A stretch of DNA of 37,982 bases from an uncultured Candidatus Saccharibacteria bacterium. GTDB taxonomy: Bacteria; Patescibacteriota; CPR2; UBA1875; CAZAFQ01. Of the stretch, positions 5,561-33,227 are shown piece after piece; the stretch's first letter is position 1; each line of letters begins with the position of its first letter. The notes beneath the pieces were generated by a model. The model saw nothing but the letters and a program-made list of their open reading frames with translations, was not told the origin of the DNA and searched no databases. A program made the translations under genes and the position numbers. Where the stretch lies: NCBI GenBank assembly GCA_964484885.1, contig CAZAFQ010000001.1, forward strand, positions 1 through 37,982, written 5' to 3'.

Positions 5561-6188
5561 AAATATATCATTTATTATTAACGCATTAAAAAATGGAACA
5601 AGACCACCAGATGAGATTGTTGTTTTATGCAATAGACCCGACTTAAATATTGATGGCGTTTTGGTGCGTTCAGACATTAATCTAGGAAATAGAGCCAGAT
5701 ATCCGTTTGCCTTAACTATTCCTTCTGATTATTACTTTTTTATTGATGATGACGTTGCACCCAGGGATATGACAATTGATAATTTTCTAAGTTATAATTT
5801 TGATGGAGTTTTAGGTCATTGTGGAAAAATAACACCAGGTGGCAATTACTCAACGCCCTTAATATGGGCAGATAGAATAAAAGAGGAGAAAGATGTTGAC
5901 TTGCTAATAGGAATTGGCAGTATGTTTGCTTCTTTTAATGCAATCGTTAATATGCTTATTTTAGAAACCACAATAAGAAACACAAAACAATACAACAACG
6001 GCAGAGAAGGTGATATTATTTTATCTATGGCTAATAATTGCAAGGTAGTTACTGCCGACAGTCAATCTATGACTTACAATTTAGATGATGGGAAAGTAGG
6101 AATGTACCTAGAGGATAATCACGTTAAAATGCGAAAAGACACTACTAAATCAATTTATGACGCTAGGCATCGCACTGATTTCGTTTAA
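5511..6188 (+). CDS. putative GT-A fold glycosyltransferase (GT2-like)
   Basis: N-terminal VTAILLAYYPER..., FFIDDDV (DxD). Overlaps the upstream gene. Confidence 0.55.
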   Translation: MSKVTAILLAYYPERVKNISFIINALKNGTRPPDEIVVLCNRPDLNIDGVLVRSDINLGNRARYPFALTIPSDYYFFIDDDVAPRDMTIDNFLSYNFDGVLGHCGKITPGGNYSTPLIWADRIKEEKDVDLLIGIGSMFASFNAIVNMLILETTIRNTKQYNNGREGDIILSMANNCKVVTADSQSMTYNLDDGKVGMYLEDNHVKMRKDTTKSIYDARHRTDFV

Positions 6189-7020
6189 TCGAGGTCAATA
6201 CTTCAAGCAAACAATCAAATCTCTTGAAAATCAAGTTAAAGCGGGAGAGGTTGATTATCATTTATTTCAAGATGGGGCAGTTAATAAATTTTCACATGCC
6301 TTAAAATCAAGACCAGAGTTAATCAGTCAGTCTATTAGAATATTTGATAGAGCAAATCTGAAGCGTAAAATAAAACACATAAGCGAGATGAATATAGGGA
6401 ATGCTTTAAATCAGTTTAGAGCAATAGAGTTCATGAGCCAGTACTATGACTATTTTTTAATTATTGAAGACGATGTTGTTTTATCTAAGTATTATCTAAG
6501 ACTCATCAGAGTTATGATTGAACAATTTTTAAGCGAAAATGATGTTTTTAGCGTTGCACTAAATTTTAAGAGAATGTGCGAGAAAAGCAAGATAAAAGAA
6601 AATTTAGACAAAGCAGGCTACAATTTAAAATTCCCAGGGGCTAATTCATTGCATTGGTGGGCTGAATGTTTTAGTAGCGAGAAATGGCAGAGGGCTAAGC
6701 CTTATTTTCTTGATTATATTAAATTAGTTGAGAATTGCGACTATCAGAGGCGACCGGCTCAAAAAATTAAAGAGTTATTTTATCGAAGCGGTATGTTTAT
6801 TGCGCAAACTTCGCAAGACGCAGGAAAAGACTATGCAATTAAAATGGCAGGCATGAAGCGAGTAAACACAATTGTTAATCGAGGGTTCTATATTGGACAG
6901 ATAGGCTTGCATTTTAATCCCGCTTTATACAACAAAATGGAATATGCTAGTCAGAAACCTTTTGAGTTTAAGAGCGACCTTTTATTAAATTCTTTCAATA
7001 TTTGCGATAAAAACAATTAA
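6157..7020 (+). CDS. putative GT-A fold glycosyltransferase
   Basis: GIALISFNRGQYF N-terminus typical of GT-A. LIIEDDVVLSKYY resembles the EDD motif of GT13-like enzymes. Confidence 0.55.
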   Translation: MTLGIALISFNRGQYFKQTIKSLENQVKAGEVDYHLFQDGAVNKFSHALKSRPELISQSIRIFDRANLKRKIKHISEMNIGNALNQFRAIEFMSQYYDYFLIIEDDVVLSKYYLRLIRVMIEQFLSENDVFSVALNFKRMCEKSKIKENLDKAGYNLKFPGANSLHWWAECFSSEKWQRAKPYFLDYIKLVENCDYQRRPAQKIKELFYRSGMFIAQTSQDAGKDYAIKMAGMKRVNTIVNRGFYIGQIGLHFNPALYNKMEYASQKPFEFKSDLLLNSFNICDKNN

Positions 7021-8557: not shown

Positions 8558-8926
8558 ATGGACAACAAAATACTAAAAAAAGCATTTATAGATGCTTATA
8601 AAAAAACTTTTGGCAATATTAGCCAGTCATGCAAGAGGATAAAAATAAGTAGGCAAACTTATTACAACTGGATGGAAAAAGATGAAGAGTTTAAAAAACA
8701 ACTAGACGGGGTAGAGCCGGAAGAAGTTTTTATTGACTTTGCAGAAAATGCCTTAGTCAAGAGAATACAAGAAGGCGACACGACCGCAATTATATTTACT
8801 CTTAAGACTAAAGGCAAAAAAAGAGGATATATTGAAAGGCAAGAAATTGAGCACAAGGGAGAGATAGACACGGGTTCAAAAGAGGTAGCAAAAGCCCTTC
8901 GTGAAATAATAGAAAGCGATGAGTAA
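8558..8926 (+). CDS. terS: terminase small subunit-like HTH protein
   Basis: HTH ISRQTYYNWMEKDEEF and the later AIIFTLKTKGKKRGY resemble phage terS families. It sits immediately upstream of terL and overlaps it. Confidence 0.6.
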   Translation: MDNKILKKAFIDAYKKTFGNISQSCKRIKISRQTYYNWMEKDEEFKKQLDGVEPEEVFIDFAENALVKRIQEGDTTAIIFTLKTKGKKRGYIERQEIEHKGEIDTGSKEVAKALREIIESDE

Positions 8927-10211
8927 AAGCATAAAAGCGATTAAAAAAATCGTTCACACTTATTTCAAAGACTCAAATAACGAACCATTCCCGATTACTG
9001 ACAGCCAGTGTAGACTATTTGCAGGGATAGTAGATAGGCGTAAAAAATGGTTATGGATATCCGCGCCCACCCGTTATGGCAAGAGCGAGACTTTAGCCCT
9101 TGCGATAATTTATTTAGCGGTATTTGAAAGATTAAAAATCCCCGTTGTTGCTGGCTCAAAAGACAAAGCAAAAAAAATAATGGATTATGTCGTGGCTCAT
9201 ATTGCAGACCACCCAGAGTTACACAATGGACTGATCAACGTTAAGGGGATTGATGACGTAGAGAAGCTAAAGATAACAATTTCTAAAAATGCTCTGCGAT
9301 GGTCTAATGGTGGTTGGATATTTGTTACCTCAATTGACTCAAGGTCAATAATTAGTGAAGGAGAGGGAGCAGTTGGCGAGGGAGGTGATGTAGTTATTTT
9401 AGAAGAGGCTGGCTTAATAAAAAGAGAAGAGCAGTTCTCGAAGGTGGTAAGAATGACAGAGCACAAATCTGGCTGGGGGAAGTTGGTAATGTCCGGCAAC
9501 TGTATAGAAAACAGTGTGTTTGAAAAAGCATATAAAAGTAGCCTCTATTTCAAGATAAGAATTAGTTTAGAAGAAGCAATTAGAGAAGGCAGGTTTACAA
9601 AGCAAGAGCTAGAGGATAAAAAACAACAAACAACAGCTAAGGATTGGAAGCGATATTATTTAGTTAAATTTCCAAAGGCTAGCGAGTTTGCTTATTTTAA
9701 ACCAAATAAGTATGAGGTGTTGCCCAGAGAGCTAGATTATTTTGGAGCTATTGACCCCTCTCTTGGCGAAACAAAAAAGTCAAGCAAAATTGGGATAGTA
9801 GTTTTAGCAAGGGACACTAAAGGTCAAGTTTTCGAGACAGAGAGCGTTGTCGACCATCTATCCCCAGATGAAGCAATAAGGAAAATATTTAATATGCCTT
9901 ATAAATTTAAGCGGTTTGTATTTGAGGCTGTTCAGTTTCAAAAGTACTTCTTAGAGATAACAGATGAAAAAAGCAAAGCTCAAGGACTATATATCCCATT
10001 TGAGGGGATTACTCAGGCAAAGAATAAAACAGAAAGAATAGAAAGCCTAGAGCCACATGTCAATAACAAACACATATTATTTAAGGGTGACAATCAGCTG
10101 TGGAAAGACTTGCAAGACTACCCAGAAACAGAGTTCTTAGATGGGCTTGACTCATTAGAGATGGCATGGAGAGCTATTGGGGAGGCTGATACAGAATTTT
10201 TCTTTGCTTAA
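8919..10211 (+). CDS. terL: terminase large subunit
   Basis: Walker A-like SAPTRYGKSE and Walker B-like VVILEEAG. The C-terminal nuclease-like region has GAIDPSLG. Position is canonical. Confidence 0.8.
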   Translation: MSKSIKAIKKIVHTYFKDSNNEPFPITDSQCRLFAGIVDRRKKWLWISAPTRYGKSETLALAIIYLAVFERLKIPVVAGSKDKAKKIMDYVVAHIADHPELHNGLINVKGIDDVEKLKITISKNALRWSNGGWIFVTSIDSRSIISEGEGAVGEGGDVVILEEAGLIKREEQFSKVVRMTEHKSGWGKLVMSGNCIENSVFEKAYKSSLYFKIRISLEEAIREGRFTKQELEDKKQQTTAKDWKRYYLVKFPKASEFAYFKPNKYEVLPRELDYFGAIDPSLGETKKSSKIGIVVLARDTKGQVFETESVVDHLSPDEAIRKIFNMPYKFKRFVFEAVQFQKYFLEITDEKSKAQGLYIPFEGITQAKNKTERIESLEPHVNNKHILFKGDNQLWKDLQDYPETEFLDGLDSLEMAWRAIGEADTEFFFA

Positions 10212-10233: not shown

Positions 10234-10285
10234 ATAGTGGACACACAAACTATTGAGAGTCAGCGAGCCCCATAAAGTAAAAAAT

Positions 10286-12523
10286 ATGAACATATTTCAA
10301 AAAGGCTTACAAATAATTAAAAAAGACTTTCTAGGTTTAGGTCACTCTGTTACTTCTTTTGGGTGGCAAATTCCAGGCAGATGGAACAAAAGACAACAAC
10401 TCGAGCAATACAATAGATACGTTTACACAATAGTGTCTGCTTTTGCTATTGATTTTGCGAAAAATGGCTACAAGCTAAAGAGGGGGGAATCAGAGGTTGG
10501 CAGTCATGAGCTACTTAACGTTTTAAATTCCCCCAATTCAGAGCAGTCAGGGTTTCAGTTTAGAGAGTTGCATGCCACCTACATGAAGCTAGCAGGTGAG
10601 TCATTTTGGTACTTAGTTAGGGGAAGTCTTAGTAAAAAAGCAAAAGAGATATATTTGCTTAGACCCGATTTAGTAGATATCGAGCTAAACGATGACAGTA
10701 TTGGGTCGATAAAAAAATATATACTTCACTTGCCAAGCGGAAAAAAAGAGGATTTTAGCCCAGAGGAAATTATTCATTTCAAGTATCCGAATCCTATAAA
10801 TCCAAAACGAGGCATGGGAGTAGTAGAAGCCTCAATGACTTACCTTCAGACCGAAGAGTATTCTAGCCAATGGACAAAAAACTCAATTTATAACTCTGGT
10901 CGTCCATCTGGAATTATAAACCTACAGGGGAAGATGGATGACAATCAATTCAATCAATTAAAAGAAAATTTCAAACAAGAGTATACAGGCACAGTAAATG
11001 CTGGCAAAACCCTACTATTAAAAGGATTTGATGGTATAGACTGGGCGAAGTTGGGAATGGATTTAGAGGGCATTGATTTAAAGAGCGTTAAAGATTTAAC
11101 TAGAGAGGACATTATGTTTATGTTTAGGACCTCAAATACCATTATGGGAATTACTGATGATGTGAATCGAGCTAATTCTAGAGAAATGAGAGGAGTGTGG
11201 ATGGACAATGTGGTAAAGCCTGAGCTAGATAGATTTGTTGATCAAATAAATCACTCATTGGCTAAGATTTACGGAAATGATCTAACACTAGAATATGAAG
11301 ACCCTAATCCTGAAACAATTAAAGATAGGGTCGAGGAATGGGATAAAGGAGTAGACAGGTGGCTAAGTAAGAACGACATCATTAGAGAGAGAAATCAAAT
11401 ATTGGGAACTGATATTCCAGAGAAAAAAGGAGGGGATGAGATTTGGCAACCACTGTCACTCGTACCCATGGAGTTAAGAAAAGAGGATAAGTCTCAAGAG
11501 AAACAAGTCAAAACAGAAAAGAACCTAAAAAAGGAAAGGAAAGTAGAAAAAGAAGTTAGTCTAGAAGTCAAGCCAACAAAGAAAGAGCGTGGAGAGATAA
11601 TGAGAAAGAATATTTTTAGAGAACAAGAAAGATGGGAGCAACCATTCCAAGAACAAGTCAACAAAGTATTTGAGTATCAAAAAAAGCAAATTCTGGATAA
11701 AGTAAAATCAATAGACAAAAACTTTGAAGATTGGTTATTTGACCGATTAGAGTCAATATTATTATGGAAAGAGTTAATTTTGCCAATTGCAACAGAAATC
11801 ATAAAAAGTCAATCTAAGTATATGTTTGATTTTGTTGATGACGATAGCGTTGCAGGAGAGTTAGAGATAACCCCTTCAATAAAAAACTCAATCGAACAAA
11901 GAGTGGAAAGGTGGTCGTCAGATGTTGACGCCGACACTAGAGAATTATTGAATGACACAATCAATCAAGGAGTAAGAGCCGGAGAATCTGTTTCTAAGTT
12001 GAGGTCTCGAATAGAGTCCGTGTATGATCAAGCAACTAAAACGAGAAGCACTAGAATTGCTAGAACAGAAACGATATTCTTATCTAACATGGCTCAACTT
12101 GAAGCTATGCAGTTTTTACCAAGCGTCGTTGGCAAACAATGGATGACTAATCCAGATGCCTGCGAGTTTTGTAAACCGCTTGAGGGGGTAATAATGGGTT
12201 TGGGAACTAATTTTGTAAATCAAGGGGAGTCAGTTGAGGGCTCTGATGGCGGTATTATGGTTGCTGACTACGAGGACGTATTACACCCACCCTTACATCC
12301 GAATTGCAGATGTACTATCCTTCCGGTAAACCGAGAGGAAATGAAGGACGTCAGGATTAATAAACTAGAGCAAATGTTAAATGAGTATAACGATATGGAT
12401 AAAAGAACCAAAGAAGCTAGAGGGATGTTAGAGAAAATGCAAAAAGAAAAAGAGGATCTAGCAGAGGACAAAAAAGAGTTAAATGAAACATTGAAAAAAA
12501 TAGAGGAGCTAGTAAATGAGTAG
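10286..12523 (+). CDS. portal protein fused to a MuF/SPP1 gp7-like minor head protein domain
   Basis: The N-terminal ~400 aa look portal-like. A K/E-rich linker follows. The C-terminal part has RIARTETIF...CEFCKPLEG...HPNCRCTILP (Phage_Mu_F signature). The ORF-track start at 10253 is a TTG, and the first ATG is 10286. Confidence 0.85.
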   Translation: MNIFQKGLQIIKKDFLGLGHSVTSFGWQIPGRWNKRQQLEQYNRYVYTIVSAFAIDFAKNGYKLKRGESEVGSHELLNVLNSPNSEQSGFQFRELHATYMKLAGESFWYLVRGSLSKKAKEIYLLRPDLVDIELNDDSIGSIKKYILHLPSGKKEDFSPEEIIHFKYPNPINPKRGMGVVEASMTYLQTEEYSSQWTKNSIYNSGRPSGIINLQGKMDDNQFNQLKENFKQEYTGTVNAGKTLLLKGFDGIDWAKLGMDLEGIDLKSVKDLTREDIMFMFRTSNTIMGITDDVNRANSREMRGVWMDNVVKPELDRFVDQINHSLAKIYGNDLTLEYEDPNPETIKDRVEEWDKGVDRWLSKNDIIRERNQILGTDIPEKKGGDEIWQPLSLVPMELRKEDKSQEKQVKTEKNLKKERKVEKEVSLEVKPTKKERGEIMRKNIFREQERWEQPFQEQVNKVFEYQKKQILDKVKSIDKNFEDWLFDRLESILLWKELILPIATEIIKSQSKYMFDFVDDDSVAGELEITPSIKNSIEQRVERWSSDVDADTRELLNDTINQGVRAGESVSKLRSRIESVYDQATKTRSTRIARTETIFLSNMAQLEAMQFLPSVVGKQWMTNPDACEFCKPLEGVIMGLGTNFVNQGESVEGSDGGIMVADYEDVLHPPLHPNCRCTILPVNREEMKDVRINKLEQMLNEYNDMDKRTKEARGMLEKMQKEKEDLAEDKKELNETLKKIEELVNE

Positions 12524-13259
12524 AGTTAAAAACATTACAAACTCTTTAGAATTAAAACGTATCCAATTAAGCAATGAAAAGGAAGTTAGAAATTTAATTG
12601 GAGAGGTTAAACTACAAAATGATTTATTAGGAGAGGTTATCCAATCACTAGATAAAGTTAAGGAATCGATTGACTCACAAGATTATCCACAGCCACACAA
12701 GACGGTAAAGATTAGTAATCTTAAAGATGTAAAAATCCCAGAGCTAAAATCAGTTCAGATAGAAAAACCCACTTGGTTAAAGTTAAAACAATTTTCTCTT
12801 TCTGAGCTGATTAGCTCTATTGGTGATTTGTTTAGCAATTTGCTCAGCAGGGAGTTTAGGGTTGATTTAGAACAATATCGAGTAGCCAGAAATGCCATAT
12901 CTGTTCGATTGTCAAACGGGAAAGAGTTTTTAGAGTCATTAAATACGGGCATCGCAACTGGTATGTCTAGTATTGAGTTTCCTAGTTGGATTTCTAAAGA
13001 GGAAGCCCAAAAATCGATAAATTCCAAGCTAGACACATATAGTCTTAACGATGTAAGAGATAATTCTATTAACAGCAATATTACATATTTAGGGAAGGAT
13101 GATAAGCAAGGCAATTGGCTAATAATAGAGATAAACGAGCTAGAAGGAGTAAGTATGAGATTTGCAACAGTTAAAAACAATCCCTTAATAAATACATATC
13201 AAGAAGCAATGCTAAACAGAGAGTCATTAACTTATGATATTTACTCAAAAGCTTTCTAA
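12516..13259 (+). CDS. hypothetical head-module protein, 247 aa
   Basis: SD GAGGAG 7 nt upstream. Overlaps the portal stop. No family recognised. Confidence 0.6.
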   Translation: MSRVKNITNSLELKRIQLSNEKEVRNLIGEVKLQNDLLGEVIQSLDKVKESIDSQDYPQPHKTVKISNLKDVKIPELKSVQIEKPTWLKLKQFSLSELISSIGDLFSNLLSREFRVDLEQYRVARNAISVRLSNGKEFLESLNTGIATGMSSIEFPSWISKEEAQKSINSKLDTYSLNDVRDNSINSNITYLGKDDKQGNWLIIEINELEGVSMRFATVKNNPLINTYQEAMLNRESLTYDIYSKAF

Positions 13260-13447: not shown

Positions 13448-13533
13448 AAATGCAAGAATTATAGTAGAAGTCCTAGAGATTCCCTATATAAGAGGTCATA
13501 GAACCCGACAAACTAATAAAAGAGACCTTTGAG

Positions 13534-13576: not shown

Positions 13577-14050
13577 ATGTCATTTGAGCACTTTAATATA
13601 GGTGCGGGAGAGCTATCTGTGAATAGTATTGACGTTGGGCATACGACAGAAGAAGGCATTGTTGTAATGCTTGAGCCAAATGTTCACCTACATCGTTCCG
13701 GTAAATGGGGCATGACACCAGTTAAGGCTTCAATCATCGGATATGAAGTTACAGTCCAAATCACAATGGCTGAAACTACTTTAGCAAACCTGAAAAAAGC
13801 TATCGCTGGCTCAACAACTGGCGGTAACAATGTGCAGATCGGTGGATTAGCTGGCAGAGAAGTAAATGGCAGTGAGATTACTCTTACGCCTTTTGATGGA
13901 ACTCACAGCTGGACATTCAGAAATGCAGTCCCGACTTCACCAGTCGAAGTTCTTTATCAAGTTGAAAACGAAAGAGTTTATCAGGTGACCTTTACTGCAC
14001 TAGTAGATGAGGACTCACCCGATGAATCTAACGTTGTATTTGTAAGTTAA
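13577..14050 (+). CDS. virion structural protein, 157 aa (possible displaced tail tube or decoration protein)
   Basis: SD AAAGGAAA. TAATG coupling to the capsid gene. Beta-rich sequence. The function is inference only. Confidence 0.65.
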   Translation: MSFEHFNIGAGELSVNSIDVGHTTEEGIVVMLEPNVHLHRSGKWGMTPVKASIIGYEVTVQITMAETTLANLKKAIAGSTTGGNNVQIGGLAGREVNGSEITLTPFDGTHSWTFRNAVPTSPVEVLYQVENERVYQVTFTALVDEDSPDESNVVFVS

Positions 14051-15834
14051 TGGAAAAAAGAATACTCACAGTCACTAAAGCTAGAGATTTAGGCGATGGG
14101 ATTATCGAAGCAGTTATTGCTTCTGAAAAAGAGGATAGGCATGAAACAATACTAGAGCTGAAAGGCTTGGATACCTCATCATACATGAAAAATCCAGTAG
14201 TATTATGGGTTCATGATTACTCTCATCCGCCAATAGGGAAAACACTAAGTCTGAGAAAAAGTGAGGGAAAGTTAATTGCTAAAATTCAATTCGCAATAAA
14301 CGAGGACTCATTTGCTCATAAGATTTACAAACTCTATAAAGGTGGATTTATGAAAGCTTTCTCAATCGGGTTTATCTCTAAAGAAATGAATGAGAACAGA
14401 TATACCAAATCCGAGATGTTGGAACACTCAGCAGTCCCTGTTCCCGCAAACTCAGAAGCTCTAGCTCTAGCAGTTACTAAAGGGGTTATTGAAAAAACAG
14501 ACCTCGAATTATTTGCCGAAAGGCAGAAGGGAAACAATATGAAATTAAAAGATATTCTAGCAAAAAGACTAGAAGACTTAACAGGTGAGGAAAGAGCCTT
14601 CCTCATCGAAAATAAAGATAAATTGTCAGAGGCTCAAAAAATAGTATATAGGGAAATCCTTACGGAAGCCGAAGAGTCAGAGGAAACTCCAGAGGAAACC
14701 CATGAGGAAGCTCCAAAAGAGAATGAGGAAGTCAAGGAACAACTTAAATCATTAAGCGAGGCTGTGGGTAAAATCTCAGAATTACTTGATGGTCAAGTTG
14801 TTAGAAAAGACATCAACCTAGGCGCTCAATCTCGATATTCAAGAGGGCTCAAGAAGGAGGAAAAGACTAAACTCTGGTTCAAAGGATTGGTCACAAACAA
14901 TTTCTCTGAATACGTTGATGTTGTAGGCAAACAAGCCATGACCACCGACGAAAACGGAGCAATTGTCCCTCCAGAAGAGTTTATCGCAGAAATTTCTCGC
15001 CTTGAGGAAGAGTACGGAGTTGCTTCCAGATTTGCGAATGTAAGGCGAACAACTAATAATGCTCTCAGGGGTGTAAAGGGAGGTGATGATTTAGAATTGG
15101 TCAAAACTTCTGAGCTTGGGCATAAAGCCAAACAAGAAACAAGCTATGAGCCATATAATCTAACTCACCTAGAGTATACGGGCATTGTGCCTGTATCTGA
15201 TACTTTGCTTGAGGATAGCGCCATTGATTTATGGGGGGACTTAACTAATAGGTTCGCTCGTGCCAATGTCAAGCGTCAAGATGAGTTGGTCTTAACTGAG
15301 AATGATACCGACGACGATGTTTATGGTATCTTAAATGCTCTTGGTACAGCTCAGATTGGAGTTGTAGATTTAGAGGACACATTAGCAGACAAGTTAAACG
15401 AGATGTTATACGCTGTCCCCACCCCCTCAATGAGCAATGGAAGATACCTCTTTCATAGAACTTGGTTGGGAGCTATCCAAAGATTGAAGGATAAAGACGG
15501 CAGATATATTTGGCAACCTGGCATTGACGGTGGAGTTTCAGGAACTATCTGGGGCGTGCCTTACACCTTAACAGAAGCCATGCCTTCACTTAATGAGGTT
15601 CAAGAAGGCGACCCGTTCTTGATTTTTGGTGACATGAAAAACACCACTCTTTCAATCAGAGTACCAATGCAAACCCAGTTCTTTAATACTGGCGTTATCA
15701 CAGATAGTAGTGGTAATGTTCTGTTGAACTTAATGCAACAGGACGCACAAGCTATTAGAGCTAGAGTGAGAATGAACCAAGTCCACGTTCACCCAGAGGC
15801 TTACAGTGTGTTGGTTTTAGGAGATATTAGTTAA
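14050..15834 (+). CDS. HK97-type prohead protease (S78) fused to an acidic linker and an HK97-fold major capsid protein
   Basis: The N-terminus has PVVLWVHDYSHPPIGK...AFSIGF...HSAVPVPAN (protease-like). An E-rich coiled linker follows. The C-terminal ~300 aa look capsid-like. A strong terminator lies downstream. Confidence 0.85.
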   Translation: MEKRILTVTKARDLGDGIIEAVIASEKEDRHETILELKGLDTSSYMKNPVVLWVHDYSHPPIGKTLSLRKSEGKLIAKIQFAINEDSFAHKIYKLYKGGFMKAFSIGFISKEMNENRYTKSEMLEHSAVPVPANSEALALAVTKGVIEKTDLELFAERQKGNNMKLKDILAKRLEDLTGEERAFLIENKDKLSEAQKIVYREILTEAEESEETPEETHEEAPKENEEVKEQLKSLSEAVGKISELLDGQVVRKDINLGAQSRYSRGLKKEEKTKLWFKGLVTNNFSEYVDVVGKQAMTTDENGAIVPPEEFIAEISRLEEEYGVASRFANVRRTTNNALRGVKGGDDLELVKTSELGHKAKQETSYEPYNLTHLEYTGIVPVSDTLLEDSAIDLWGDLTNRFARANVKRQDELVLTENDTDDDVYGILNALGTAQIGVVDLEDTLADKLNEMLYAVPTPSMSNGRYLFHRTWLGAIQRLKDKDGRYIWQPGIDGGVSGTIWGVPYTLTEAMPSLNEVQEGDPFLIFGDMKNTTLSIRVPMQTQFFNTGVITDSSGNVLLNLMQQDAQAIRARVRMNQVHVHPEAYSVLVLGDIS

Positions 15835-15858
15835 AAAGCTAATGTCAATTGAACAGTT

Positions 15859-15887
15859 GCCCCACTCTTTAGTGGGGCTTTTGTTTT
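15859..15887 (+). terminator. rho-independent terminator after the capsid gene
   Basis: 8-bp stem GCCCCACT/AGTGGGGC, loop cttt, then TTTTgTTTT. Confidence 0.8.
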
Positions 15888-15888
15888 G

Positions 15889-15897
15889 TGATATACT
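15889..15897 (+). promoter_or_regulatory. extended -10 promoter TGaTATACT
   Basis: Lies immediately after the terminator. An identical 9-mer occurs at 25438. Confidence 0.5.
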
Positions 15898-15967
15898 TAA
15901 TATATGCTAAAAATAAAAGACATTATTCACCAGGCAATTATAAAGCCATTCATAACAAAGGACGAAG

Positions 15968-28373: not shown

Positions 28374-28793
28374 ATGAAAGAAAGATATTTAGTTAAATGT
28401 AGAAAATGTAAGTGGTGGTTTTATACATACGACCATGACACAAAATGGCACAGTAAATGTAAACCAGTTAAAAAAGAAAGGCAAAAACTACCAAAAGGAT
28501 ATGCACACAAAAGACACTCGGTTTTAATAAGAGATAAAAATATTTGCCAAGAATGTGGAACAAAAGTAGTAGAAAGAATAACCCACGTTCATCATATTGA
28601 TAGAGATTATAAAAACGATAGCTTAACAAATTTAGTTACATTATGCGCAAGCTGTCATAAAATGGTTGAGAATAATGACGATTACACAAAGTTAAGTGAT
28701 TTTAAACTGCAACCTGATGAGAGTTTTAAAGATATACCTAAACCTAAAGAAAGAAAGCCAGTAAAAAAACATTTATTTACTAATATAAAATAA
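28374..28793 (+). CDS. HNH endonuclease
   Basis: CQECG...HVHHIDRDYKNDSLTNLVTLCASCHKMVE is a classic H-N-H motif with zinc Cys pairs. Confidence 0.85.
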   Translation: MKERYLVKCRKCKWWFYTYDHDTKWHSKCKPVKKERQKLPKGYAHKRHSVLIRDKNICQECGTKVVERITHVHHIDRDYKNDSLTNLVTLCASCHKMVENNDDYTKLSDFKLQPDESFKDIPKPKERKPVKKHLFTNIK

Positions 28794-28932
28794 TTACTCT
28801 TATGTTCTTAATACAGGTAGAACTTTAGACTTTACTGCCTCTGAGGCAGGTGATGTAGAGGGTGTTTTCACAGAGCTGAGGGTAACCAATCCTGTTGCTG
28901 ACCAATCAGTAACCTGCACCCTGCAAGAAAAC

Positions 28933-31161
28933 GTGGCTTCTGTTTGGACTGATAGAGTTTCCAAAACCTTAACCTATGAGGAGATAGCTGGTGATTATGC
29001 ACCCATTTTACTAGGCAAGGCAGTGAGTGCTATGTGGGTTTATTTTGAGTTTGATAGCCTGTTTTCAATTACTACTGACCCCTCTAAGTATCGAGTTAAA
29101 TTTCTCTCAACAGACAATGGAGCTTATATAGCTCGTGCCACGTCAACTCCTAGTAATGTGTTTGCAGTAGTAACCACCCTGCCAACCTTTTTCTCTACCA
29201 ATGATGATATTGTCCTTAATAATAAAATAACCTTTAGGGTTGACCAAGATATTGAGTGTGCAGGTTTTTATCTAGGCAATGATAGTTCGCTAAAGTGGGA
29301 GGAAAATCCTGTCTCATCTTACAGTTTAAAGATAACCGACTTATGGATGGGCTGTAACACAGAGTTTAATATCGGTTCAGAGGATAACCCCATTCCTTAT
29401 GAAAAACAAGCAGAGTTCCAAGTTACTACTCTAAGAGCGCCTTTAGTTTGGGCTGGTGATGTGCCTTACAGAATTAAGATATATGGCGAGAAGCCAGAAG
29501 GAATTAAAACCACCTCTACTACTACATCAAACACAGCAACAGTCAACCTCGCTACTCAAGATGACATGAGTGATATTTGGCAAGTGGGTGATAACATCAT
29601 CTGCCACTCAGGCTTGAACTCAACCTCTCGCACTATTACGTATATCTCGGGCAAAGATATATCTATCAACGGCACTGCCTATCCAAGTAAAGATTATCCT
29701 ATTTTAAACGCAACTGTTTGGGAGAAATGCGGAGTAAAAGGAGCAATGGTAATCTCTCGCATTGCTGGCAACCCACATGAGATTTGTTTTTCAGGAGTAT
29801 TCTTAAATGGAGGTCTTCTAAATATTCAACTAGCCTATAACGCTTCACAACAGCAAGTTACTAGTGCCTCGATTGAAAAGATTAAGCCTGTTTTATTAGA
29901 GTATATTACAGGTGGAGGGCTAACGCTTGACTCTACCAATGTTATCTCTGGTAATGCTGACATTCAAGAAAGATACTCAGGCTCTATCATTAGGCATTAC
30001 TACGCCCATAAATCAAGCTCACAAAATTTTACAATAGTAAGTAGGGTAAAATACATCTTATCCGATATTTACACAGGCGGTTACTTAAACAAGGCAAACA
30101 TCCAACTATCCAACAGCACAATAACTGATATGAGTGTTTCTTTAGACGCTTGGCAGGGAAATGTTTGGACTTATTACAGCGTTAGGCTAGACGGCTCTAA
30201 TATTATGATTAACAACTTTAAGGCTAACAACGTCTGCGTGGCACTAAGCGGAGTAAACATCACCTTTAATAATAGTAAGTTCAACAACATGAGAGGGAAT
30301 GCTAGAGCTATTACTGCTGTTGGGGCTTTAACCAATCTTGTGTGCAAAGACTGCGAGTTTGGTCAAATAGTGCCTAATGGAGCTTCTTTTGAAACTTTAC
30401 CTGATAACTATATTGAGGCTAAGTTTGAAAACTGTCTACTAGATACAGAGGTTGTTGCAGACCAAACACAGCTTTTGCAAGGCAGTAGGGTTTTGTTTCC
30501 TTTTTACAATCAAGAGAGTAAAAGTAACTATGCTTATTTTAAGACAGGTACAATCACTACTACTGGTGATGGGCTAACCGATACCACTACTAGAACACCA
30601 GGAGCAGGCAAGTTTGCAATGAGATTTGAGCCAGTCAGTAAAGAGCTGTTTGAGTTTTCATCAACCATTCCTACTGGAAACATTAAAAACAAAACAATGA
30701 CTGTGGCGGTTTGGTGCAAGATAAACTCCGACCTTTTCTATCAAGATGAGTACCAGTTACCCAGGCTTGCAGTTAAGTTTGACAACCAGACAGTAGTTTC
30801 TAAAGAGGCAAAAAAAACTACCTCTTGGCAACTTATACCTGTTAGTTTCACTCCCTTAACCGAGTATGGACAAGTAGAGGTTACCTTTTCTGCTGAGACT
30901 GACAAAACAGGCTCTGACGCTTATGTTTACTTTGATGACTTCTCAACACTTTTTCCAGGTGGCTATCAGCTAGACACACAAGGATTTGATTTGTGGGCTA
31001 ATGCTCTACCTGTTGCTCCTTACTTGTCTACCAACCTATCAGCTAAAGATGTCTGGACTGCTCTTGAAACCGATGACTATGGGGAAAACAGTATGGGAGA
31101 GAGAGTGAAAAAGGGAGCTAAGATTAAATACATTGCAGATGGTATACCTTTATACGAATGA
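28933..31161 (+). CDS. large beta-helix-like protein with C-terminal jelly-roll/CBM-like region (second receptor-binding or depolymerase candidate)
   Basis: Repetitive N/S/T/G-rich beta-strand-like segments (NISLSNSTITDM..., VNITFNNSKFNNM...). The earliest canonical start is GTG 28933, with no SD. The frame is open back to 28789. Confidence 0.65.
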   Translation: MASVWTDRVSKTLTYEEIAGDYAPILLGKAVSAMWVYFEFDSLFSITTDPSKYRVKFLSTDNGAYIARATSTPSNVFAVVTTLPTFFSTNDDIVLNNKITFRVDQDIECAGFYLGNDSSLKWEENPVSSYSLKITDLWMGCNTEFNIGSEDNPIPYEKQAEFQVTTLRAPLVWAGDVPYRIKIYGEKPEGIKTTSTTTSNTATVNLATQDDMSDIWQVGDNIICHSGLNSTSRTITYISGKDISINGTAYPSKDYPILNATVWEKCGVKGAMVISRIAGNPHEICFSGVFLNGGLLNIQLAYNASQQQVTSASIEKIKPVLLEYITGGGLTLDSTNVISGNADIQERYSGSIIRHYYAHKSSSQNFTIVSRVKYILSDIYTGGYLNKANIQLSNSTITDMSVSLDAWQGNVWTYYSVRLDGSNIMINNFKANNVCVALSGVNITFNNSKFNNMRGNARAITAVGALTNLVCKDCEFGQIVPNGASFETLPDNYIEAKFENCLLDTEVVADQTQLLQGSRVLFPFYNQESKSNYAYFKTGTITTTGDGLTDTTTRTPGAGKFAMRFEPVSKELFEFSSTIPTGNIKNKTMTVAVWCKINSDLFYQDEYQLPRLAVKFDNQTVVSKEAKKTTSWQLIPVSFTPLTEYGQVEVTFSAETDKTGSDAYVYFDDFSTLFPGGYQLDTQGFDLWANALPVAPYLSTNLSAKDVWTALETDDYGENSMGERVKKGAKIKYIADGIPLYE

Positions 31162-31403
31162 GTTTTATAGAAAACAAAAGACGAGTTAGAGAGATTTACG
31201 GCATTGCCGAGAACGATAAAAGGTACTCTATTCATCACATCTGTTTTAGAAGCGACTTTAAGGGAGCTGAGAGAAAAAACATGCACAACAAGGAAAACCT
31301 GATACCTTTAAAAAAAGAAGACCACAGATTACTGCACCAGCGGATACAAGAGCTAGAAAACGAGATAAAAGCAACAAAGAAAATCAAAAGAAAGAAACGC
31401 TGA
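31158..31403 (+). CDS. miniature HNH-family protein, 81 aa
   Basis: YSIHHICFRSD...NKENLIPLKKEDHRLLH (H-N-H spacing). ATGA coupling. Confidence 0.6.
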   Translation: MSFIENKRRVREIYGIAENDKRYSIHHICFRSDFKGAERKNMHNKENLIPLKKEDHRLLHQRIQELENEIKATKKIKRKKR

Positions 31404-31432
31404 CTTTAACCATATTAAATCCTGGTGAGGAT

Positions 31433-31465
31433 ACAGGCTAGGGGTTGTCCTCTAGCCTGTTTTTA
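31433..31465 (+). terminator. rho-independent terminator (1 of 3 in tandem)
   Basis: ACAGGCTAG/CTAGCCTGT stem extendable to ~13 bp, then TTTT. Confidence 0.7.
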
Positions 31466-31513
31466 TGTTAGGATAAAATTTAACCCCCCTCATACCTATA
31501 CGGTTTGAGGAAG

Positions 31514-31547
31514 AAAGGCACTATTCCTGCTAAATCATAGTGCTTTT
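31514..31547 (+). terminator. terminator-like hairpin (2 of 3)
   Basis: GCACTAT/ATAGTGC stem flanked by an A tract and TTTT. Confidence 0.5.
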
Positions 31548-31553
31548 AGATTA

Positions 31554-31590
31554 GCCAGGTTGTTGGGCAGGCAACCTGGCTTTTTTTTTC
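31554..31590 (+). terminator. strong rho-independent terminator (3 of 3)
   Basis: GCCAGGTT/AACCTGGC stem. The loop contains TGGGCAGG. Followed by T9. Confidence 0.85.
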
Positions 31591-31630
31591 ATTATTGACA
31601 GTTTGTTTGAAATCGTATATAAACAATATT

Positions 31631-31761
31631 GTCCATCTTAAAGGTGGCGTTCCTACGGCAAGCAGGGACAAAAATAAGAAAGAGAAGACCGTTACTCTCT
31701 GGTAAGTTAAAGACTTGCCGAAATCTCTTTCTTAGACTTGCCAGAGATTAGCGGTTTTTTT
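31631..31761 (+). ncRNA. candidate small RNA ending in a long imperfect hairpin terminator
   Basis: TTGACA at 31596-31601 with TATAAA at 31617-31622 (15-nt spacer, suboptimal). A 15-position stem pairs 31688-31702 with 31741-55 (13 WC, 1 GU, 1 mismatch), followed by T6. No ORF. Confidence 0.35.
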
Positions 31762-31800
31762 ATGATACACTTTCCACCACTACAAGCAGAAGATATAAAC

Positions 31801-31835
31801 AAACCGATTGTCTGGGCAGGGCAGTCGGTTTTTTT
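31801..31835 (+). terminator. rho-independent terminator with TGGGCAGG loop
   Basis: ACCGATTG/CAGTCGGT stem (1 GU), loop tcTGGGCAGGg, then T7. Confidence 0.7.
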
Positions 31836-31963
31836 GTGTTTTTTTATACCGACTGGAAGCCTAAGTCGCCTGAAACGTCGGTTCACAGAAAAGTGGGCGA
31901 ACTAATAGCCGATAGCGTTTATGCGGAAATTAGTGTTAGCACAAAGAAAGGTGATGACCCTTC

Positions 31964-32060
31964 AAGAGGTTGGAGGACACCTTCCCCGATACTGAAAAAT
32001 AGTATCGGTGCTTAGACCGCCTAGAGTAATGTCTAGCGAGATGCGTAAGTAACCTCTTTT
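31964..32060 (+). ncRNA. candidate structured RNA element (four helices closed by an 8-bp stem plus U tract)
   Basis: P1 pairs 31964-71 with 32051-58 (8 perfect bp). P2 is GGAGG-acac-CTTCC. P3 is CCGATACT-gaaaaat-AGTATCGG. P4 pairs 32011-14 with 32046-49 and 32018-25 with 32032-38. All pairs were checked by hand. Confidence 0.35.
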
Positions 32061-32325
32061 ATATTATTAAGGTGCTGGGAAGCACTTTAGCCTCCTGCGT
32101 TTGTCGGAAATATCTTGCTTGTAAACTACCACTTAATTTATTAAACCCATGACCATTAAAAAAAACTTGATCAATTAAGAGATCAATGGACTAAGTTTCC
32201 AGAAAAGCGTAAAATAATCGAGCTTCAAGCTCTTATTGTAAAAAAAGGCATCGAGTACTCTAAAGAAGATCTACAACTCCAGAAAGATGTTGTTTCTGAT
32301 CTACTAAGATGGTAAAATTATTCTA

Positions 32326-32365
32326 ACCGCAGGAAGCTTCGCATAAGTCGCCTGCGGTATTTTTA
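32326..32365 (+). terminator. rho-independent terminator just upstream of the early promoter
   Basis: ACCGCAGG/CCTGCGGT stem, 17-nt loop, then aTTTTTaTT. Confidence 0.65.
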
Positions 32366-32372
32366 TTCGTGC

Positions 32373-32401
32373 TTGACAACGTCATCTTTTAGTGCTATAC
32401 T
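32373..32401 (+). promoter_or_regulatory. sigma70-type early promoter (TTGACA-17 nt-TATACT)
   Basis: Exact consensus -35, 17-nt spacer, TATACT. Same gtGCTTGACA context as the promoter at 800. Confidence 0.7.
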
Positions 32402-32427
32402 ATTTATATAAATAAAGGAAAGGACTT

Positions 32428-32631
32428 ATGCAAAAACTCACTCTAAAAGATTTTTTATTTTCAGAAGTAGACCATTGTTATTATTCTGGGGATTTTATGC
32501 TTGCCCCAACATTTGGAGGATTTGCTGTATTTATAAATGGTGAGCAATATGGAACAAAACCATTCCCTCATAAAGAAGCACTAGAATTAATTAATGAATT
32601 AAGAGAGACCAATAAGGAGGAAAGACAATGA
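32428..32631 (+). CDS. hypothetical early protein, 67 aa
   Basis: SD AAAGGAAAGGA. It is the first gene after the promoter. Confidence 0.7.
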   Translation: MQKLTLKDFLFSEVDHCYYSGDFMLAPTFGGFAVFINGEQYGTKPFPHKEALELINELRETNKEERQ

Positions 32632-33227
32632 ACTTATATATTAAATTAAATAATGCCAGATATGAGTTACAAAATTTAAGACTTAAAAAATCAGGCTTAA
32701 ACAAGTATTCAAGCTATAATTATTATGAATTAGGTGATTTTTTACCAGCGATAAACTCCCTGTGTTTGAAATATGACATGACGACAAGGTTTAATATCAT
32801 AACAGATAAAAATAGTGAAAAGGCGATTTTAACCATAATAAACTCGTCAGAGCCACAAGAAAAGCTGGAGTTTATTTCACCAACCGCAGAAGTTGAGATC
32901 GGAAAGAAAAAAGACGGCACAGGCGGAGCTGAGCCTATTCAAAACTTGGGGGGAAAGATTACCTATATGAGACGCTATATGTTAATGACAGCTTTCGAGA
33001 TGGTTGAGTCTGACAGAGTAGAGCAGATAAATCGTGAACTAACAGGGTCTATATCTGATGATGATTTAGAAAAAATAAACAAAACAAGAACACAATCACA
33101 ACTAATAAAGGTTTGTTCTGCACTAAAGACAAAATATAAAACTAATTTAATCACCCCTCACTATGAAAGAAGAATTGAGGAACTAAAACAAGACGAAGTA
33201 GAGTTGCAAAAGAAAGGCAAGAAATGA
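32628..33227 (+). CDS. ERF-family single-strand annealing protein
   Basis: KKSGLNKYSSYNYYELGDFLPAI...LGGKITYMRRYMLMTAFEM resembles the ERF family pattern. Paired with an exonuclease. Confidence 0.6.
   Translation: MNLYIKLNNARYELQNLRLKKSGLNKYSSYNYYELGDFLPAINSLCLKYDMTTRFNIITDKNSEKAILTIINSSEPQEKLEFISPTAEVEIGKKKDGTGGAEPIQNLGGKITYMRRYMLMTAFEMVESDRVEQINRELTGSISDDDLEKINKTRTQSQLIKVCSALKTKYKTNLITPHYERRIEELKQDEVELQKKGKK

Follow-up and report, generated by a model that had tools for sequence, protein, structure and literature searches.

The 1024-nt stretch at 31404–32427 is a compound noncoding control region situated where the late transcription programme of a phage meets the early one, in a circularly closed 38-kb genome, analysed here as a window of 37,982 nt. 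Past the late terminators, the order of this island is that of a separate "pre-early" unit: promoter, a structured RNA (RNA1), a terminator (T5), a structured region of ~300 nt (NC300), a small gene (ORF55) and a closing terminator (T6), followed by the main early promoter. RNA1 and the four-way-junction RNA within the ~300-nt element are new, with no described family matching either of them; the phage group that carries them is uncultivated and has a low-GC host.

The genome is ~91% coding with a one-strand gene layout, and the island is its biggest intergenic gap, the runner-up being 354 nt. Open reading frames of 60 aa or more are absent from both strands, the two longest having 59 aa; the sequence-only reading, which described an ORF-free island of about 1 kb in an otherwise nearly gap-free genome, was right on both counts. 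The island is also the richest stretch of the plus strand for structure. Its mean folding z (100-nt windows, GC-corrected) is −1.57 on the plus strand and −1.07 on the minus strand, compared with −0.13 and +0.21 for the rest of the genome, and the best folding 100-nt window genome-wide begins at 31681 on the plus strand. Three of the five strong plus-strand terminator-like sites found in a genome scan lie inside the island, with the remaining two at 13531 and 15859. The GC stem-loop and U-tract of an intrinsic terminator are present in T1, T3 and T5 by the scan and in the RNA1 hairpin and T6 by folding, and all five fold more stably as plus-strand RNA because of their G·U pairs, in agreement with the plus orientation previously assigned to the hairpins. 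The features, all on the plus strand, are as follows:

31433–31465, +: T1, first intrinsic terminator past the late operon (12-bp stem and T-run)
31471–31552, +: 82-nt lineage-specific insertion with a weak hairpin, "T2" (31514–31547), missing from relatives L015, L016 and L017
31553–31590, +: T3, strong intrinsic terminator (12-bp stem and T9)
31595–31623, +: island promoter with consensus-like hexamers, TTGACA (31595–31600), 17 nt, TATAAA (31618–31623)
31631–31762, +: RNA1, predicted transcript of ~130 nt with an inferred start (long hairpin 31682–31760 and U7)
31801–31846, +: T5, second terminator past the island promoter (13 pairs and T-run)
31848–32148, +: NC300, conserved noncoding structured region (folding and conservation)
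31964–32058, +: four-helix (four-way junction) element, core of NC300 (alignment and folding)
32149–32315, +: ORF55, small hydrophilic 55-aa gene, frameshifted in the window (A8 at 32158–32165; A9 in relatives)
32326–32367, +: T6, terminator closing the island and mosaic junction (folding z = −3.45)
32373–32401, +: main early promoter, TTGACA, 17 nt, TATACT, with TG (11/12 consensus match)

The last gene of the late operon, encoding 81 aa (31158–31403), lies directly upstream of the island, and T1 and T3 are the predicted ends of that operon. T1 has a folding energy of −21.5 kcal/mol on the plus strand versus −17.7 kcal/mol on the minus strand, and its stem is kept in the related contig L017 via a compensatory A-T to G-C change. 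T3 shows compensatory changes in L015 (C-G to T-A) and in L017, and forms the left edge of a block common to all island-bearing relatives but L057. Two of the three tandem terminators proposed earlier stand, and the middle one is weak (−10.7 kcal/mol), not conserved, and situated in the segment that relatives lack. The promoter-like element noted ahead of a ~130-nt hairpin RNA was recovered: among plus-strand TTGACA sites it is one of only four genome-wide to have a good −10 hexamer spaced by 17 nt, it is conserved in L015 and L017, and L026, L001 and L057 each have a TTGACA promoter at the corresponding location.

The hairpin RNA also holds up as a structured candidate. RNA1 has a folding z of −5.4, and its hairpin folds with −38.0 kcal/mol on the plus strand versus −22.3 kcal/mol on the minus strand. 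Identity in L017 and L015 is 98.5–100%, with the RNA1 3′ arm and U-tract (31744–31762) absent from L015 and L016. A covariance model built from the window and L017 matched contigs L025–27 at 31.1 bits (E about 1e-4; next background match 20.6 bits), revealing a distant, equivalently placed counterpart of RNA1 in a different phage lineage. The hairpin has seven compensatory pairs relative to L026, this covariation being a single comparison with a sequence that nhmmer with an island profile does not detect. The loop motif GCCG(G)AAA.C.CUUUCU is the same in the window and L026 although the stems differ, and its conserved pairing partner lies within RNA1 itself.

Folding also predicts for RNA1 the mutually exclusive pairing, sequestering part of a terminator, that characterizes attenuators. 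A competing 11-bp helix, in which 31675–31685 pairs with 31724–31734, is the earlier to form when the RNA is folded stepwise, and it cannot coexist with the base of the RNA1 terminator. Partial transcripts form this helix together with a small hairpin (31700–31720), and the terminator replaces both in the full-length fold (−51.1 kcal/mol when free versus −35.2 kcal/mol with the competing helix forced). Ten of the 11 pairs of the competing helix are kept in L026, two of them compensatory, an outcome that 56 of 500 shuffles equal with three sequences. RNA1 has no recognisable sensor for a ligand, protein or tRNA, and no Rfam leader matches it.

The second terminator reported past the hairpin RNA corresponds to T5, with folding energies of −17.6 kcal/mol on the plus strand versus −8.0 kcal/mol on the minus strand. 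Changes in L017 are confined to its loop, and in L057 the stem is kept, one A-U pair having become C-G by a compensatory change and one C-G pair having become U-G. Two strong terminators separate the island promoter from NC300, and no conserved promoter was found that would belong to NC300 itself; read-through would be its only source of transcription, which suits an origin poorly.

NC300 comprises a hairpin (31848–31882), a helix with a variable apex (31901–31934), the four-helix element, and a further hairpin (32068–32089), with ~90 nt of AU-rich, weakly conserved sequence between the junction and the ORF55 start codon. It is 100% identical in L015 and 97.7% in L017, and its conservation exceeds that of the neighbouring spacer and small gene (Fisher p = 0.003), as does that of RNA1. 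L057 likewise conserves NC300, with 21 nt inserted at the apex of helix 31901–31934 and the loss of three pairs in hairpin 32068–32089. RNAalifold predicts 75 pairs, six of them compensatory, the comparative covariation amounting essentially to one deep comparison, window lineage versus L057. No conserved open reading frame was found in NC300 among the relatives compared.

The four-helix element, earlier described as 97 nt long, is well supported. It consists of a closing helix (31964–71/32051–58) and three hairpins (31972–84, 31986–32008 and 32010–32050). In a gap-free alignment of the window, L017 and L057 (104 columns), 98.1% of cells are paired and six pairs are changed on both sides, with L057 differing from the window at 21 of the 104 positions (~80% identity). 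Two of 500 shuffles match this, and slid controls are 36–51% paired with 0–1 double changes. The four-way junction is the minimum-energy fold of the window (z −3.9) and of L057 (z −3.45), each folded alone, and six G·U positions point to the plus strand. Its arm lengths differ from those of tRNA, and no Rfam model matches it. Conservation or covariation of helices in relatives, the check that the sequence-only reading had named, was found for T1, T3, T5, the four-helix element and RNA1; because this check failed to refute its terminators and structured-RNA candidates, we regard these as right.

What had been taken for a "startless" small ORF is instead a frameshift allele, A8 rather than A9, of a conserved small gene, a gain for annotation. 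ORF55 is intact (54–55 aa) in L003, L015, L016, L017 and L057, and the A8 allele is present in five independent assemblies. The product is highly charged and hydrophilic, and the gene has no Shine-Dalgarno sequence. L001 holds a 51-aa homologue at the same position (29% identity over the full length), and NC300 always occurs with ORF55 (window, L015, L017 and L057), which fits a cis-regulatory leader as well as it fits an origin.

The final terminator ahead of a consensus early promoter was confirmed as T6 and the main early promoter, past which the first early gene begins at 32428; the TTGACA of this promoter is kept in L001, L015 and L017. At T6's place, L015, L017 and L057 have non-homologous GC hairpins and T-runs. 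Identity between L001 and the window begins exactly at 32325, and from there through the early genes the two are 99.3% identical. Further signs of mosaicism are the 82-nt indel and a 19-nt deletion in L015, and L001 and L007 diverge from the window at 32325 and 32419, respectively. Assembly contigs break at polymorphic points, not at one fixed point, and the contig breaks were rejected as physical genome ends because they coincide with strain polymorphisms.

Contig L001 offers a natural experiment, in which near-identical phages differ in one slot: a classical initiator with iterons in one and noncoding transcripts of predicted structure in the other. Between the last late gene and T6, L001 has, in order, a promoter, a leader, an initiator gene, a 93-aa gene and the ORF55 homologue. 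The leader is ~110 nt long, structured and terminated (z −4.4). The initiator is a 224-aa DnaD-like/O-like protein (phrog_2514 at 3e-26, phrog_345 at 2e-12) whose gene contains a 4.3-copy 11-nt tandem repeat (iterons) and AT-rich DNA, so that the components of an iteron-type origin—initiator, tandem repeats and AT-rich DNA—are all found in L001. No homologue of this initiator was found in the window by tblastn, and the island has no DNA or translated similarity to the L001 slot genes, no tandem repeats or iterons, and no AT-rich region clearly suited to unwinding; the lack of iterons and of such a region fits an origin poorly. Pfam and PHROGs recognised no initiator, helicase, primase or polymerase anywhere in the window genome, which is weak evidence because about half of the genes are without annotation and may include an initiator that these profiles miss. 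A promoter and a structured, terminated RNA of ~100–130 nt are found at the island position in four sequence-unrelated versions (window/L026, L001, L057).

Since L001 carries a DnaD-like initiator and iterons in the same slot where the window has no recognisable initiator, we tentatively suggest, as our best reading and by analogy, that the island unit may be a transcription-dependent replication-origin or replication-control module of the c2 kind, short of an even chance as this is. RNA polymerase starting at the island promoter would produce a structured noncoding transcript, the terminator/anti-terminator choice in RNA1 would set the amount of read-through into NC300, and the transcript, or transcription itself, would activate or prime DNA synthesis carried out by enzymes of the host; recombination-dependent replication could then draw on the recombination genes Erf and YqaJ, which lie immediately downstream. 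A broader and slightly more doubtful proposal is that the promoter, the attenuator-like RNA and the ~300-nt RNA with its four-way junction make up a protein-independent, RNA-structure-based origin cassette that is interchangeable, among phages otherwise 99% identical, with a DnaD-like initiator and iteron cassette, and that phages swap initiation modes in modular fashion. Transcript-dependent phage origins are so far known essentially from lactococcal c2-type phages; if the origin reading is right, such origins would be more widely distributed than assumed, and their cassettes could be exchanged for initiator-based origins. If the origin reading is wrong, the RNAs stay candidates for a new cis-regulatory leader or phage regulatory RNA. 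Among the functions originally listed for the island with no choice made between them (sRNAs, origin, packaging site, insulator), insulation is straightforward for T1 and T3 only, a packaging site is unsupported, and the origin is indirectly supported by the L001 slot comparison.

The ColE1 origins use no plasmid-encoded initiator; a structured transcript of ~550 nt (RNA II, with its regulator RNA I) decides priming by its folding. The ~555 nt of structured noncoding sequence between the island promoter and ORF55 is similar in size, an analogy only, and unlike ColE1 the island has no identified antisense partner, no plasmid similarity and no sign of RNase H-type priming. The closest architectural parallel is the origin of Ceduovirus c2, in which early promoters PE1 and PE2 flank a noncoding sequence; for its PE1-T transcript, also noncoding, both length and sequence or structure are important, and this transcript is proposed to activate or prime DNA synthesis (PMC7150918). 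The Ceduovirus origins (c2, bIL67 and 923 types), like the island, are ORF-poor, situated at the start of the early genes and equipped with two co-directional early promoters. In c2 the first promoter gives a noncoding transcript without a ribosome binding site, as is predicted for the island, and there is no classical initiator in c2 and none recognisable in the window; the island promoters at 31595 and 32373 are co-directional with no ribosome binding site past the first, but a small gene, ORF55, lies in between. The c2 region, however, is 611 bp with ~360 nt between promoters and sits between divergent early and late blocks, and hairpins are not abundant in it (z −0.4, terminator-like sites absent), whereas the island has five terminators, a small gene and a four-way junction. 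By blastn against GenBank phages the island does not match the c2, bIL67 or 923 origin types, and the four-helix covariance model (R3) has no match in the c2 origin region. Because there is no common sequence, c2 is not hairpin-rich and the covariance model does not match, the analogy is architectural only.

Transcription close to the lambda origin modulates initiation, and oop RNA is antisense to cII and convergent with pR (PMC3985674). The oop RNA/pO arrangement resembles the island as a short promoter-to-terminator RNA unit beside the replication module, and L001, with an RNA unit and an O-like initiator carrying iterons, has the lambda-like arrangement; unlike oop, RNA1 is co-directional with all of its surroundings, and the window is without an O-like protein or iterons. 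Gram-positive attenuators, bacterial and phage, share with RNA1 a promoter-proximal leader, a U-tract terminator and an early-forming exclusive upstream pairing, but in the island the unconditional-looking T5 follows RNA1 by 40 nt, no sensor is evident, and L015 is without the RNA1 terminator arm while the remainder is kept. GOLLD, ROOL and HEARO/omega-RNA are similar in being structured phage RNAs of a few hundred nucleotides in low-GC hosts with nuclease-like neighbours; they differ in that the island gives no Rfam match, there is no IscB- or TnpB-sized protein, and the adjoining nucleases are of 81–118 aa. An IscB/HEARO guide-RNA system was rejected, there being no HEARO match and no RuvC-HNH protein of ~400 aa, and the 81-aa protein having no HNH profile. 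A type I toxin-antitoxin was rejected as well: ORF55 is charged and hydrophilic, not a hydrophobic membrane peptide, and only weak antisense promoter-like sites are seen.

Several other explanations bear on the same evidence. NC300 could be a cis-regulatory leader of ORF55 (a long structured 5′ UTR, riboswitch-like or protein-binding) with RNA1 as its upstream attenuator and with no direct origin role, which we consider rather unlikely. A 54/55-aa gene lies directly 3′ of NC300 in all four lineages having NC300, the L001 leader is directly upstream of coding genes, RNA1 has its terminator/anti-terminator alternative with compensatory changes in L026, and unusual initiation control is plausible for a gene without a Shine-Dalgarno sequence. 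The L001 small-gene homologue, however, has no NC300 and its predicted expression is coupled to upstream genes, no known riboswitch class matches, and the weakly conserved spacer ahead of the start codon and the pairs lost from hairpin 32068–32089 in L057 also count against a leader, as does an intact NC300 beside the frameshifted ORF55 of the window lineage, a frameshift perhaps too recent to tell. It is unlikely that RNA1 and NC300 are stand-alone trans-acting phage RNAs that serve to take over the host, to counter its defences, or to regulate mRNAs of phage or host, in which case RNA1 would act via its pyrimidine-rich, anti-Shine-Dalgarno-like loop, CUCUUUCUU. Like sRNA genes, RNA1 has its own promoter and terminator, its loop motif is conserved despite differing stems, and NC300 shows ncRNA-like covariation and an apical stem of variable length. 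Yet no outstanding target of the loop was found at phage translation starts (best duplex −15 kcal/mol versus a mean of −7.9, sd 3.1), duplexes stronger than −15 kcal/mol arise at random internal sites, the conserved partner of the loop is internal, NC300 has no promoter of its own, and the family is extremely rare, with no true matches in IMG/VR, JGI metagenomes or GTDB genomes.

A passive boundary of insulating terminators, recombination scars and decaying gene remnants, with no further function, would account for the mosaic hot spot (the 82-nt indel, the L015 deletion, the T6 replacements, the L001/L007 divergence and the frameshifted ORF55) and for contig breaks that fall at mosaic points, and T1 and T3 alone explain insulation. 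This is nevertheless improbable, and already disfavoured by the covariation: the four-helix element keeps 98% pairing and six compensatory pairs at ~80% identity, conservation is higher in RNA1 and NC300 than in the sequences beside them, all lineages keep the promoter, and there is no translated or DNA similarity to L001 genes. Still less credible, to the point of being very improbable, is a packaging site (cos or pac) or physical genome end in which the hairpins are DNA-level signals. HNH genes accompany cos sites in HK97-like phages, and the late operon ends at the island, beside nuclease-like small genes, those of L001 and L057 being HNH by Pfam; the window's 81-aa gene, however, has no HNH profile match. 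Moreover, pac and cos sites normally adjoin the terminase genes, which here (about 8558–10211) are ~14 kb downstream on the circular map, the G·U strand asymmetry and U-tracts point to RNA and not to duplex DNA signals, and contig ends match strain polymorphisms instead of a single fixed point.

Database searches placed the island apart from described sequences. Rfam 15 gave no matches over the whole window at gathering thresholds, and 4227 Rfam models run at E up to 10 over 31100–32700 gave only implausible weak matches (plant miRNA, lncRNA); ARAGORN found no tRNA or tmRNA genes in the window. The island DNA matched no GenBank phages, near or distant, and no plasmids. An IMG/VR search seeded with the 742-aa and Erf proteins returned no relatives, a look-up of Erf homology no new gene contexts, and searches for homologues of the first early gene and of the 81-aa gene almost nothing new. 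Two invariant NC300 20–22-mers had no match in IMG/VR. The RNA1 loop and U-tract pattern had no matches in IMG/VR, 18 in JGI metagenomes (one inside a 764-aa ORF) and eight in GTDB genomes, all by chance, as were the seven IMG/VR matches to the motif GGAAGC...TAAGTCGCCTG.

Four hairpins had been proposed to form an ACCG...CGGT family. The motifs are enriched in the island (five copies of ACCG versus 1.5 expected, six of CGGT versus 1.6), T5 and the adjoining hairpin 31848–31882 have arm sequences in common, and the latter shares the 11-mer TAAGTCGCCTG with T6, but the four are related only loosely and are not one demonstrable family: the 11-mer is weakly above chance (8 of 100 shuffles reach at least two matches) and the RNA1 covariance model scores T5 at only 23 bits. 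An 8-mer and a 7-mer common to hairpin 31848–31882 and L026 were set aside, chance sharing being expected at these lengths. Among the small reading frames rejected as genes, that of 26 aa (32072–32152) is broken by a 2-nt indel in L017, and indels in L017 and L015 disrupt both the plus-strand frame 31738–31905 and the minus-strand 59-aa frame. The plus-strand 59-aa frame (31836–32015) has no ribosome binding site and no real protein homologue; it matched only a repeat protein and a spuriously called ORF, the latter leading to L057.

The gene-free island at 31404-32427 contains no ORF of at least 60 aa on either strand; in a genome that is ~91% coding, no other gap comes near it in size. It is also the strongest folding outlier of the genome (mean z -1.57 on the + strand), with the best-folding window of all starting at 31681; a genome scan gave five strong terminator-like sites on the + strand, three of which fall within the island, and the hairpins T1, T3, RNA1, T5 and T6 are all clearly stabler as + strand RNA owing to G.U pairs. 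The ~1-kb ORF-free, structure-rich island of the sequence-only reading is therefore confirmed, with the corrections described below. Two other + strand windows are strongly structured: 15801-15920, which holds the terminator after the capsid gene (15859-15878), and 12721-12840, within the gene at 12516-13259.

The genome is ~38 kb with a GC content of ~37%, all of its genes are on the + strand, and it is circularly contiguous, with contig L003 connecting window ~37025 to window ~387.

Gene order in the window
From 32428, + strand: early genes (67-aa gene, Erf, YqaJ exonuclease, small HTH proteins)
After the early genes, + strand: glycosyltransferase/epimerase cluster, then ParB-methyltransferase
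After ParB-methyltransferase, + strand: terminase, portal-MuF fusion, protease-capsid fusion
After the packaging and capsid genes, + strand: tail genes, CHAP lysin
Last, ending at 31403, + strand: HNH gene, 742-aa ORFan, 81-aa gene

No close relatives were found among GenBank phages or in IMG/VR. Related metagenomic contigs were recovered by exact-protein look-ups and fall into several groups. L002/L009, L003, L005, L008, L010 and L012-L014 are near-identical to the window, and L001 is a sibling with different content in the slot at 31404-32324. L015/L016 and L017 represent two lineages in which block 31553-32300 is 97-100% identical, unlike their early genes, which are only 68-88% identical to those of the window. 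L057, found via a spurious gene-caller ORF inside a relative's island, is clearly more diverged with the same layout, and L025-L027 form a distant lineage reached from the 81-aa gene through a homologue of 54% identity.

Features of the island
31433-31465, + strand: terminator T1, stem kept by compensatory substitutions in relatives
31553-31590, + strand: terminator T3, stem kept by compensatory substitutions in relatives
31595-31623, + strand: promoter TTGACA-17-TATAAA, conserved in L015 and L017
31801-31846, + strand: terminator T5, L017 changes confined to the loop
31964-71 with 32051-58, + strand: 8-bp closing helix of the four-helix element, three compensatory pairs and one wobble
31972-84, + strand: hairpin of the four-helix element (RNAalifold)
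31986-32008, + strand: hairpin of the four-helix element, one compensatory pair
32010-32050, + strand: hairpin of the four-helix element, two compensatory pairs
32326-32367, + strand: terminator T6, mosaic junction

Three tandem terminators had been proposed at the start of the island. T1 and T3 stand, their compensatory substitutions being seen in L017 and L015, while the weak 'T2' sits in an 82-nt insertion found only in the window lineage. The T5 stem is maintained in L057 (A-U to C-G plus C-G to U-G). Identity of L001 to the window starts exactly at 32325, the edge of T6, and L015, L017 and L057 carry unrelated GC hairpins with T-runs at that position, so that terminator function rather than sequence is conserved there. 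The hexamer GTCGCC has two + strand copies in the 38-kb window, at 31865 and 32347, each within a hairpin of the island (31848-31882 and T6). L015 has it at 1743, 2204 and 2228; in L015 and L017 the terminator that replaces T6, unrelated in sequence, has two copies, as GTCGCCGG, 24 nt apart. It may be a protein-binding motif, with weak statistical support.

Only four good TTGACA promoters lie on the + strand, the island promoter among them, and we infer that RNA1, the ~130-nt predicted transcript downstream (31631-31762), is transcribed and that transcription starts at the island promoters. RNA1 folds (z = -5.4) as a long hairpin with bulges (31682-31760) and then U7. A purine run of 11 nt (31675-31685) can pair without mismatch with the pyrimidine-rich apical loop (31724-31734); on stepwise folding this helix forms first, along with a small hairpin (31700-31720), and the stabler terminator replaces it only after the 3' arm is made. 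In the L026 lineage, the homologous upstream gene is followed in the same place by a terminator, a TTGACA promoter and a ~130-nt RNA (z = -5.8). A covariance model trained on the window and L017 alone, with roughly calibrated E-values, gives this RNA a score of 31.1 bits, with E about 1e-4 for a search of 188 kb; the top background match has 20.6 bits. Among 26 pairs of the hairpin, 11 are identical, four changed on one side, seven compensatory and four broken, and 10 of the 11 purine-run/loop pairs are kept, with two compensatory changes and one wobble. Homology is probable, not proven, since nhmmer does not detect the similarity. These results bear out the candidate 130-nt hairpin RNA previously noted behind a promoter-like element. 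L015 and L016 have lost the 3' arm and U-tract through a 19-nt deletion and retain the remainder, and at this position in L001 and L057 a TTGACA promoter precedes an equally structured RNA of ~105-110 nt that ends in a U-tract and is unrelated in sequence.

NC300, a conserved noncoding stretch (31848-32148) with no conserved ORF, has 100% identity in L015 and 97.7% in L017 and is better conserved than its neighbours, the spacer with T5 (91.7%) and the small gene ORF55 (94.7%); RNA1 and NC300 taken together are better conserved than the rest (Fisher p = 0.003). Run on the window, L017 and L057, RNAalifold gives 75 predicted pairs. Six have changed on both sides, all of them within the four-helix element (31964-32058); the sample comprises very few lineages, essentially one deep contrast per RNA. 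The 104-column alignment is gap-free and so owes nothing to the structure. Of the 21 columns in which L057 departs from the window, 17 are paired: 12 make up the six compensatory pairs, three give wobbles and two break a pair. In all, 98.1% of cells are paired, values matched by two of 500 column shuffles; sliding the partners by 1-3 columns reduces pairing to 36-51% and double changes to 0-1. Each sequence folded singly gives the same junction (z -3.9 for the window, -3.45 for L057), and six G.U positions argue for the + strand, more likely as RNA than as single-stranded + DNA. The '97-nt four-helix element' is thus upheld, and helix covariation in relatives, proposed as a check, is found in it and in the kept stems of T1, T3 and T5. 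Helix 31901-31934 keeps its base (ACUAAU/AUUAGU) and has a 21-nt apical insertion in L057 with two TCTAGA palindromes, read by eye. No counterpart of the four-helix element was found in L001, L025-27, the origin of lactococcal phage c2 or Rfam, and no Rfam family matches the island.

The 'startless ORF' does not hold as such. If the run at 32158-32165 is lengthened by one A, 32149-32315 reads as a gene for a charged 55-aa protein (ORF55), intact in L003, L015, L016, L017 and L057 and with a 51-aa homologue at the same position in L001. The A8 allele occurs in five independent assemblies and is therefore a real, derived frameshift. Assemblies that are otherwise identical have ORF55 off or on depending on the A8/A9 homopolymer; with A8, an A_AAA_AAC slippery site remains at which a -1 shift would restore the frame, and expression by such slippage, or by transcriptional slippage, is conceivable. 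No Shine-Dalgarno sequence precedes the 'pre-early' genes (window 32149, L001 3772, L026 620 and 966), which may be leaderless or otherwise unusual in initiation; a strong one, AAAGGAAAGGA, stands before the adjacent early gene at 32428.

From 32325 onward L001 and the window share 99.3% identity. The stretch that replaces 31404-32324 in L001 starts with an HNH/NinG gene, and then come a promoter, a structured leader, an initiator, a 93-aa gene and the ORF55 homologue. The initiator (224 aa, DnaD-like / O-like) has no homologue in the window, and its gene contains 4.3 copies of CCAACAAATCG followed by AT-rich DNA; the island has no tandem repeats, and the window no recognisable replication proteins besides Erf and the exonuclease. 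Two near-identical phages thus have either an initiator-plus-iteron cassette or RNA1 and NC300 at one position. The terminators are ordinary, and RNA1 and the four-way-junction RNA each represent a new family of a known general kind; the unusual feature is this exchange with an initiator.

Transcription signals, folds, conservation and cassette exchange, as read from sequence, form the demonstrated part of our account. Beyond them we tentatively propose a replication-origin or replication-control module, in which transcription and the structured noncoding transcript would drive or control DNA replication and competing RNA1 structures would set the amount of read-through. The proposal is modelled on the origin of c2-type phages, in which early promoters PE1 and PE2 flank a noncoding region and the length and sequence or structure of the noncoding PE1-T transcript are critical (PMC7150918), and is in the spirit of ori-lambda, which is activated by transcription (PMC3985674). 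The island shares no sequence or model similarity with the c2 origin, which unlike it is not hairpin-rich, and on this proposal would work like that family without belonging to it.

Other roles are less probable. That NC300 is a leader for ORF55, which lies directly after it, is rather unlikely, and we consider it unlikely too that the island encodes trans-acting RNAs. A passive boundary is improbable, and a packaging site very improbable.

A small nuclease-like gene lies directly upstream of the island promoter in every lineage (window 31158-31403; L001 3257-3613; L057 836-1189, its stop codon overlapping the -35 hexamer; L017 4786-5082; L026 102-377). Pfam assigns it to HNH in L001 and L057, and in L017 it has a weak PHROG HNH match; the window 81-aa protein and its 91-aa homologue have no profile match and an H-H...N...H pattern by eye only.

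Relatives' contigs start or stop at 31417 (a SNP), 31470-31485 (the 82-nt indel edge), 32157 (the A-run) and 32408-32419 (the L007 divergence point). These are island polymorphisms, which suggests co-occurring strains differing in the island rather than physical genome ends. In L007 (1-90, in a 1-kb contig) the first early gene is identical and its upstream context is of a third kind: an ORF reaching to ~55 nt from the start codon, then a different TTGACA promoter, without a terminator.

The 742-aa ORFan (gene 28933-31161; region 28804-31092) has no Pfam, PHROG or PDB match. It is found in the window, L002, L010 and L012 and is absent or truncated in L003 and L013, with differing right junctions. 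Flanked by an HNH gene (28374-28793) on one side and the 81-aa gene on the other, it resembles an inserted mobile or accessory element. A cluster of four or five glycosyltransferase-like genes with an NAD-dependent sugar epimerase (1707-7020), preceded by an HNH gene, lies between the early and packaging genes and could have a role in DNA or cell-envelope glycosylation. Two morphogenesis genes are fused: portal with a Mu-F-like head morphogenesis domain (10253-12523, 756 aa) and prohead protease with major capsid protein (14050-15834, 594 aa).
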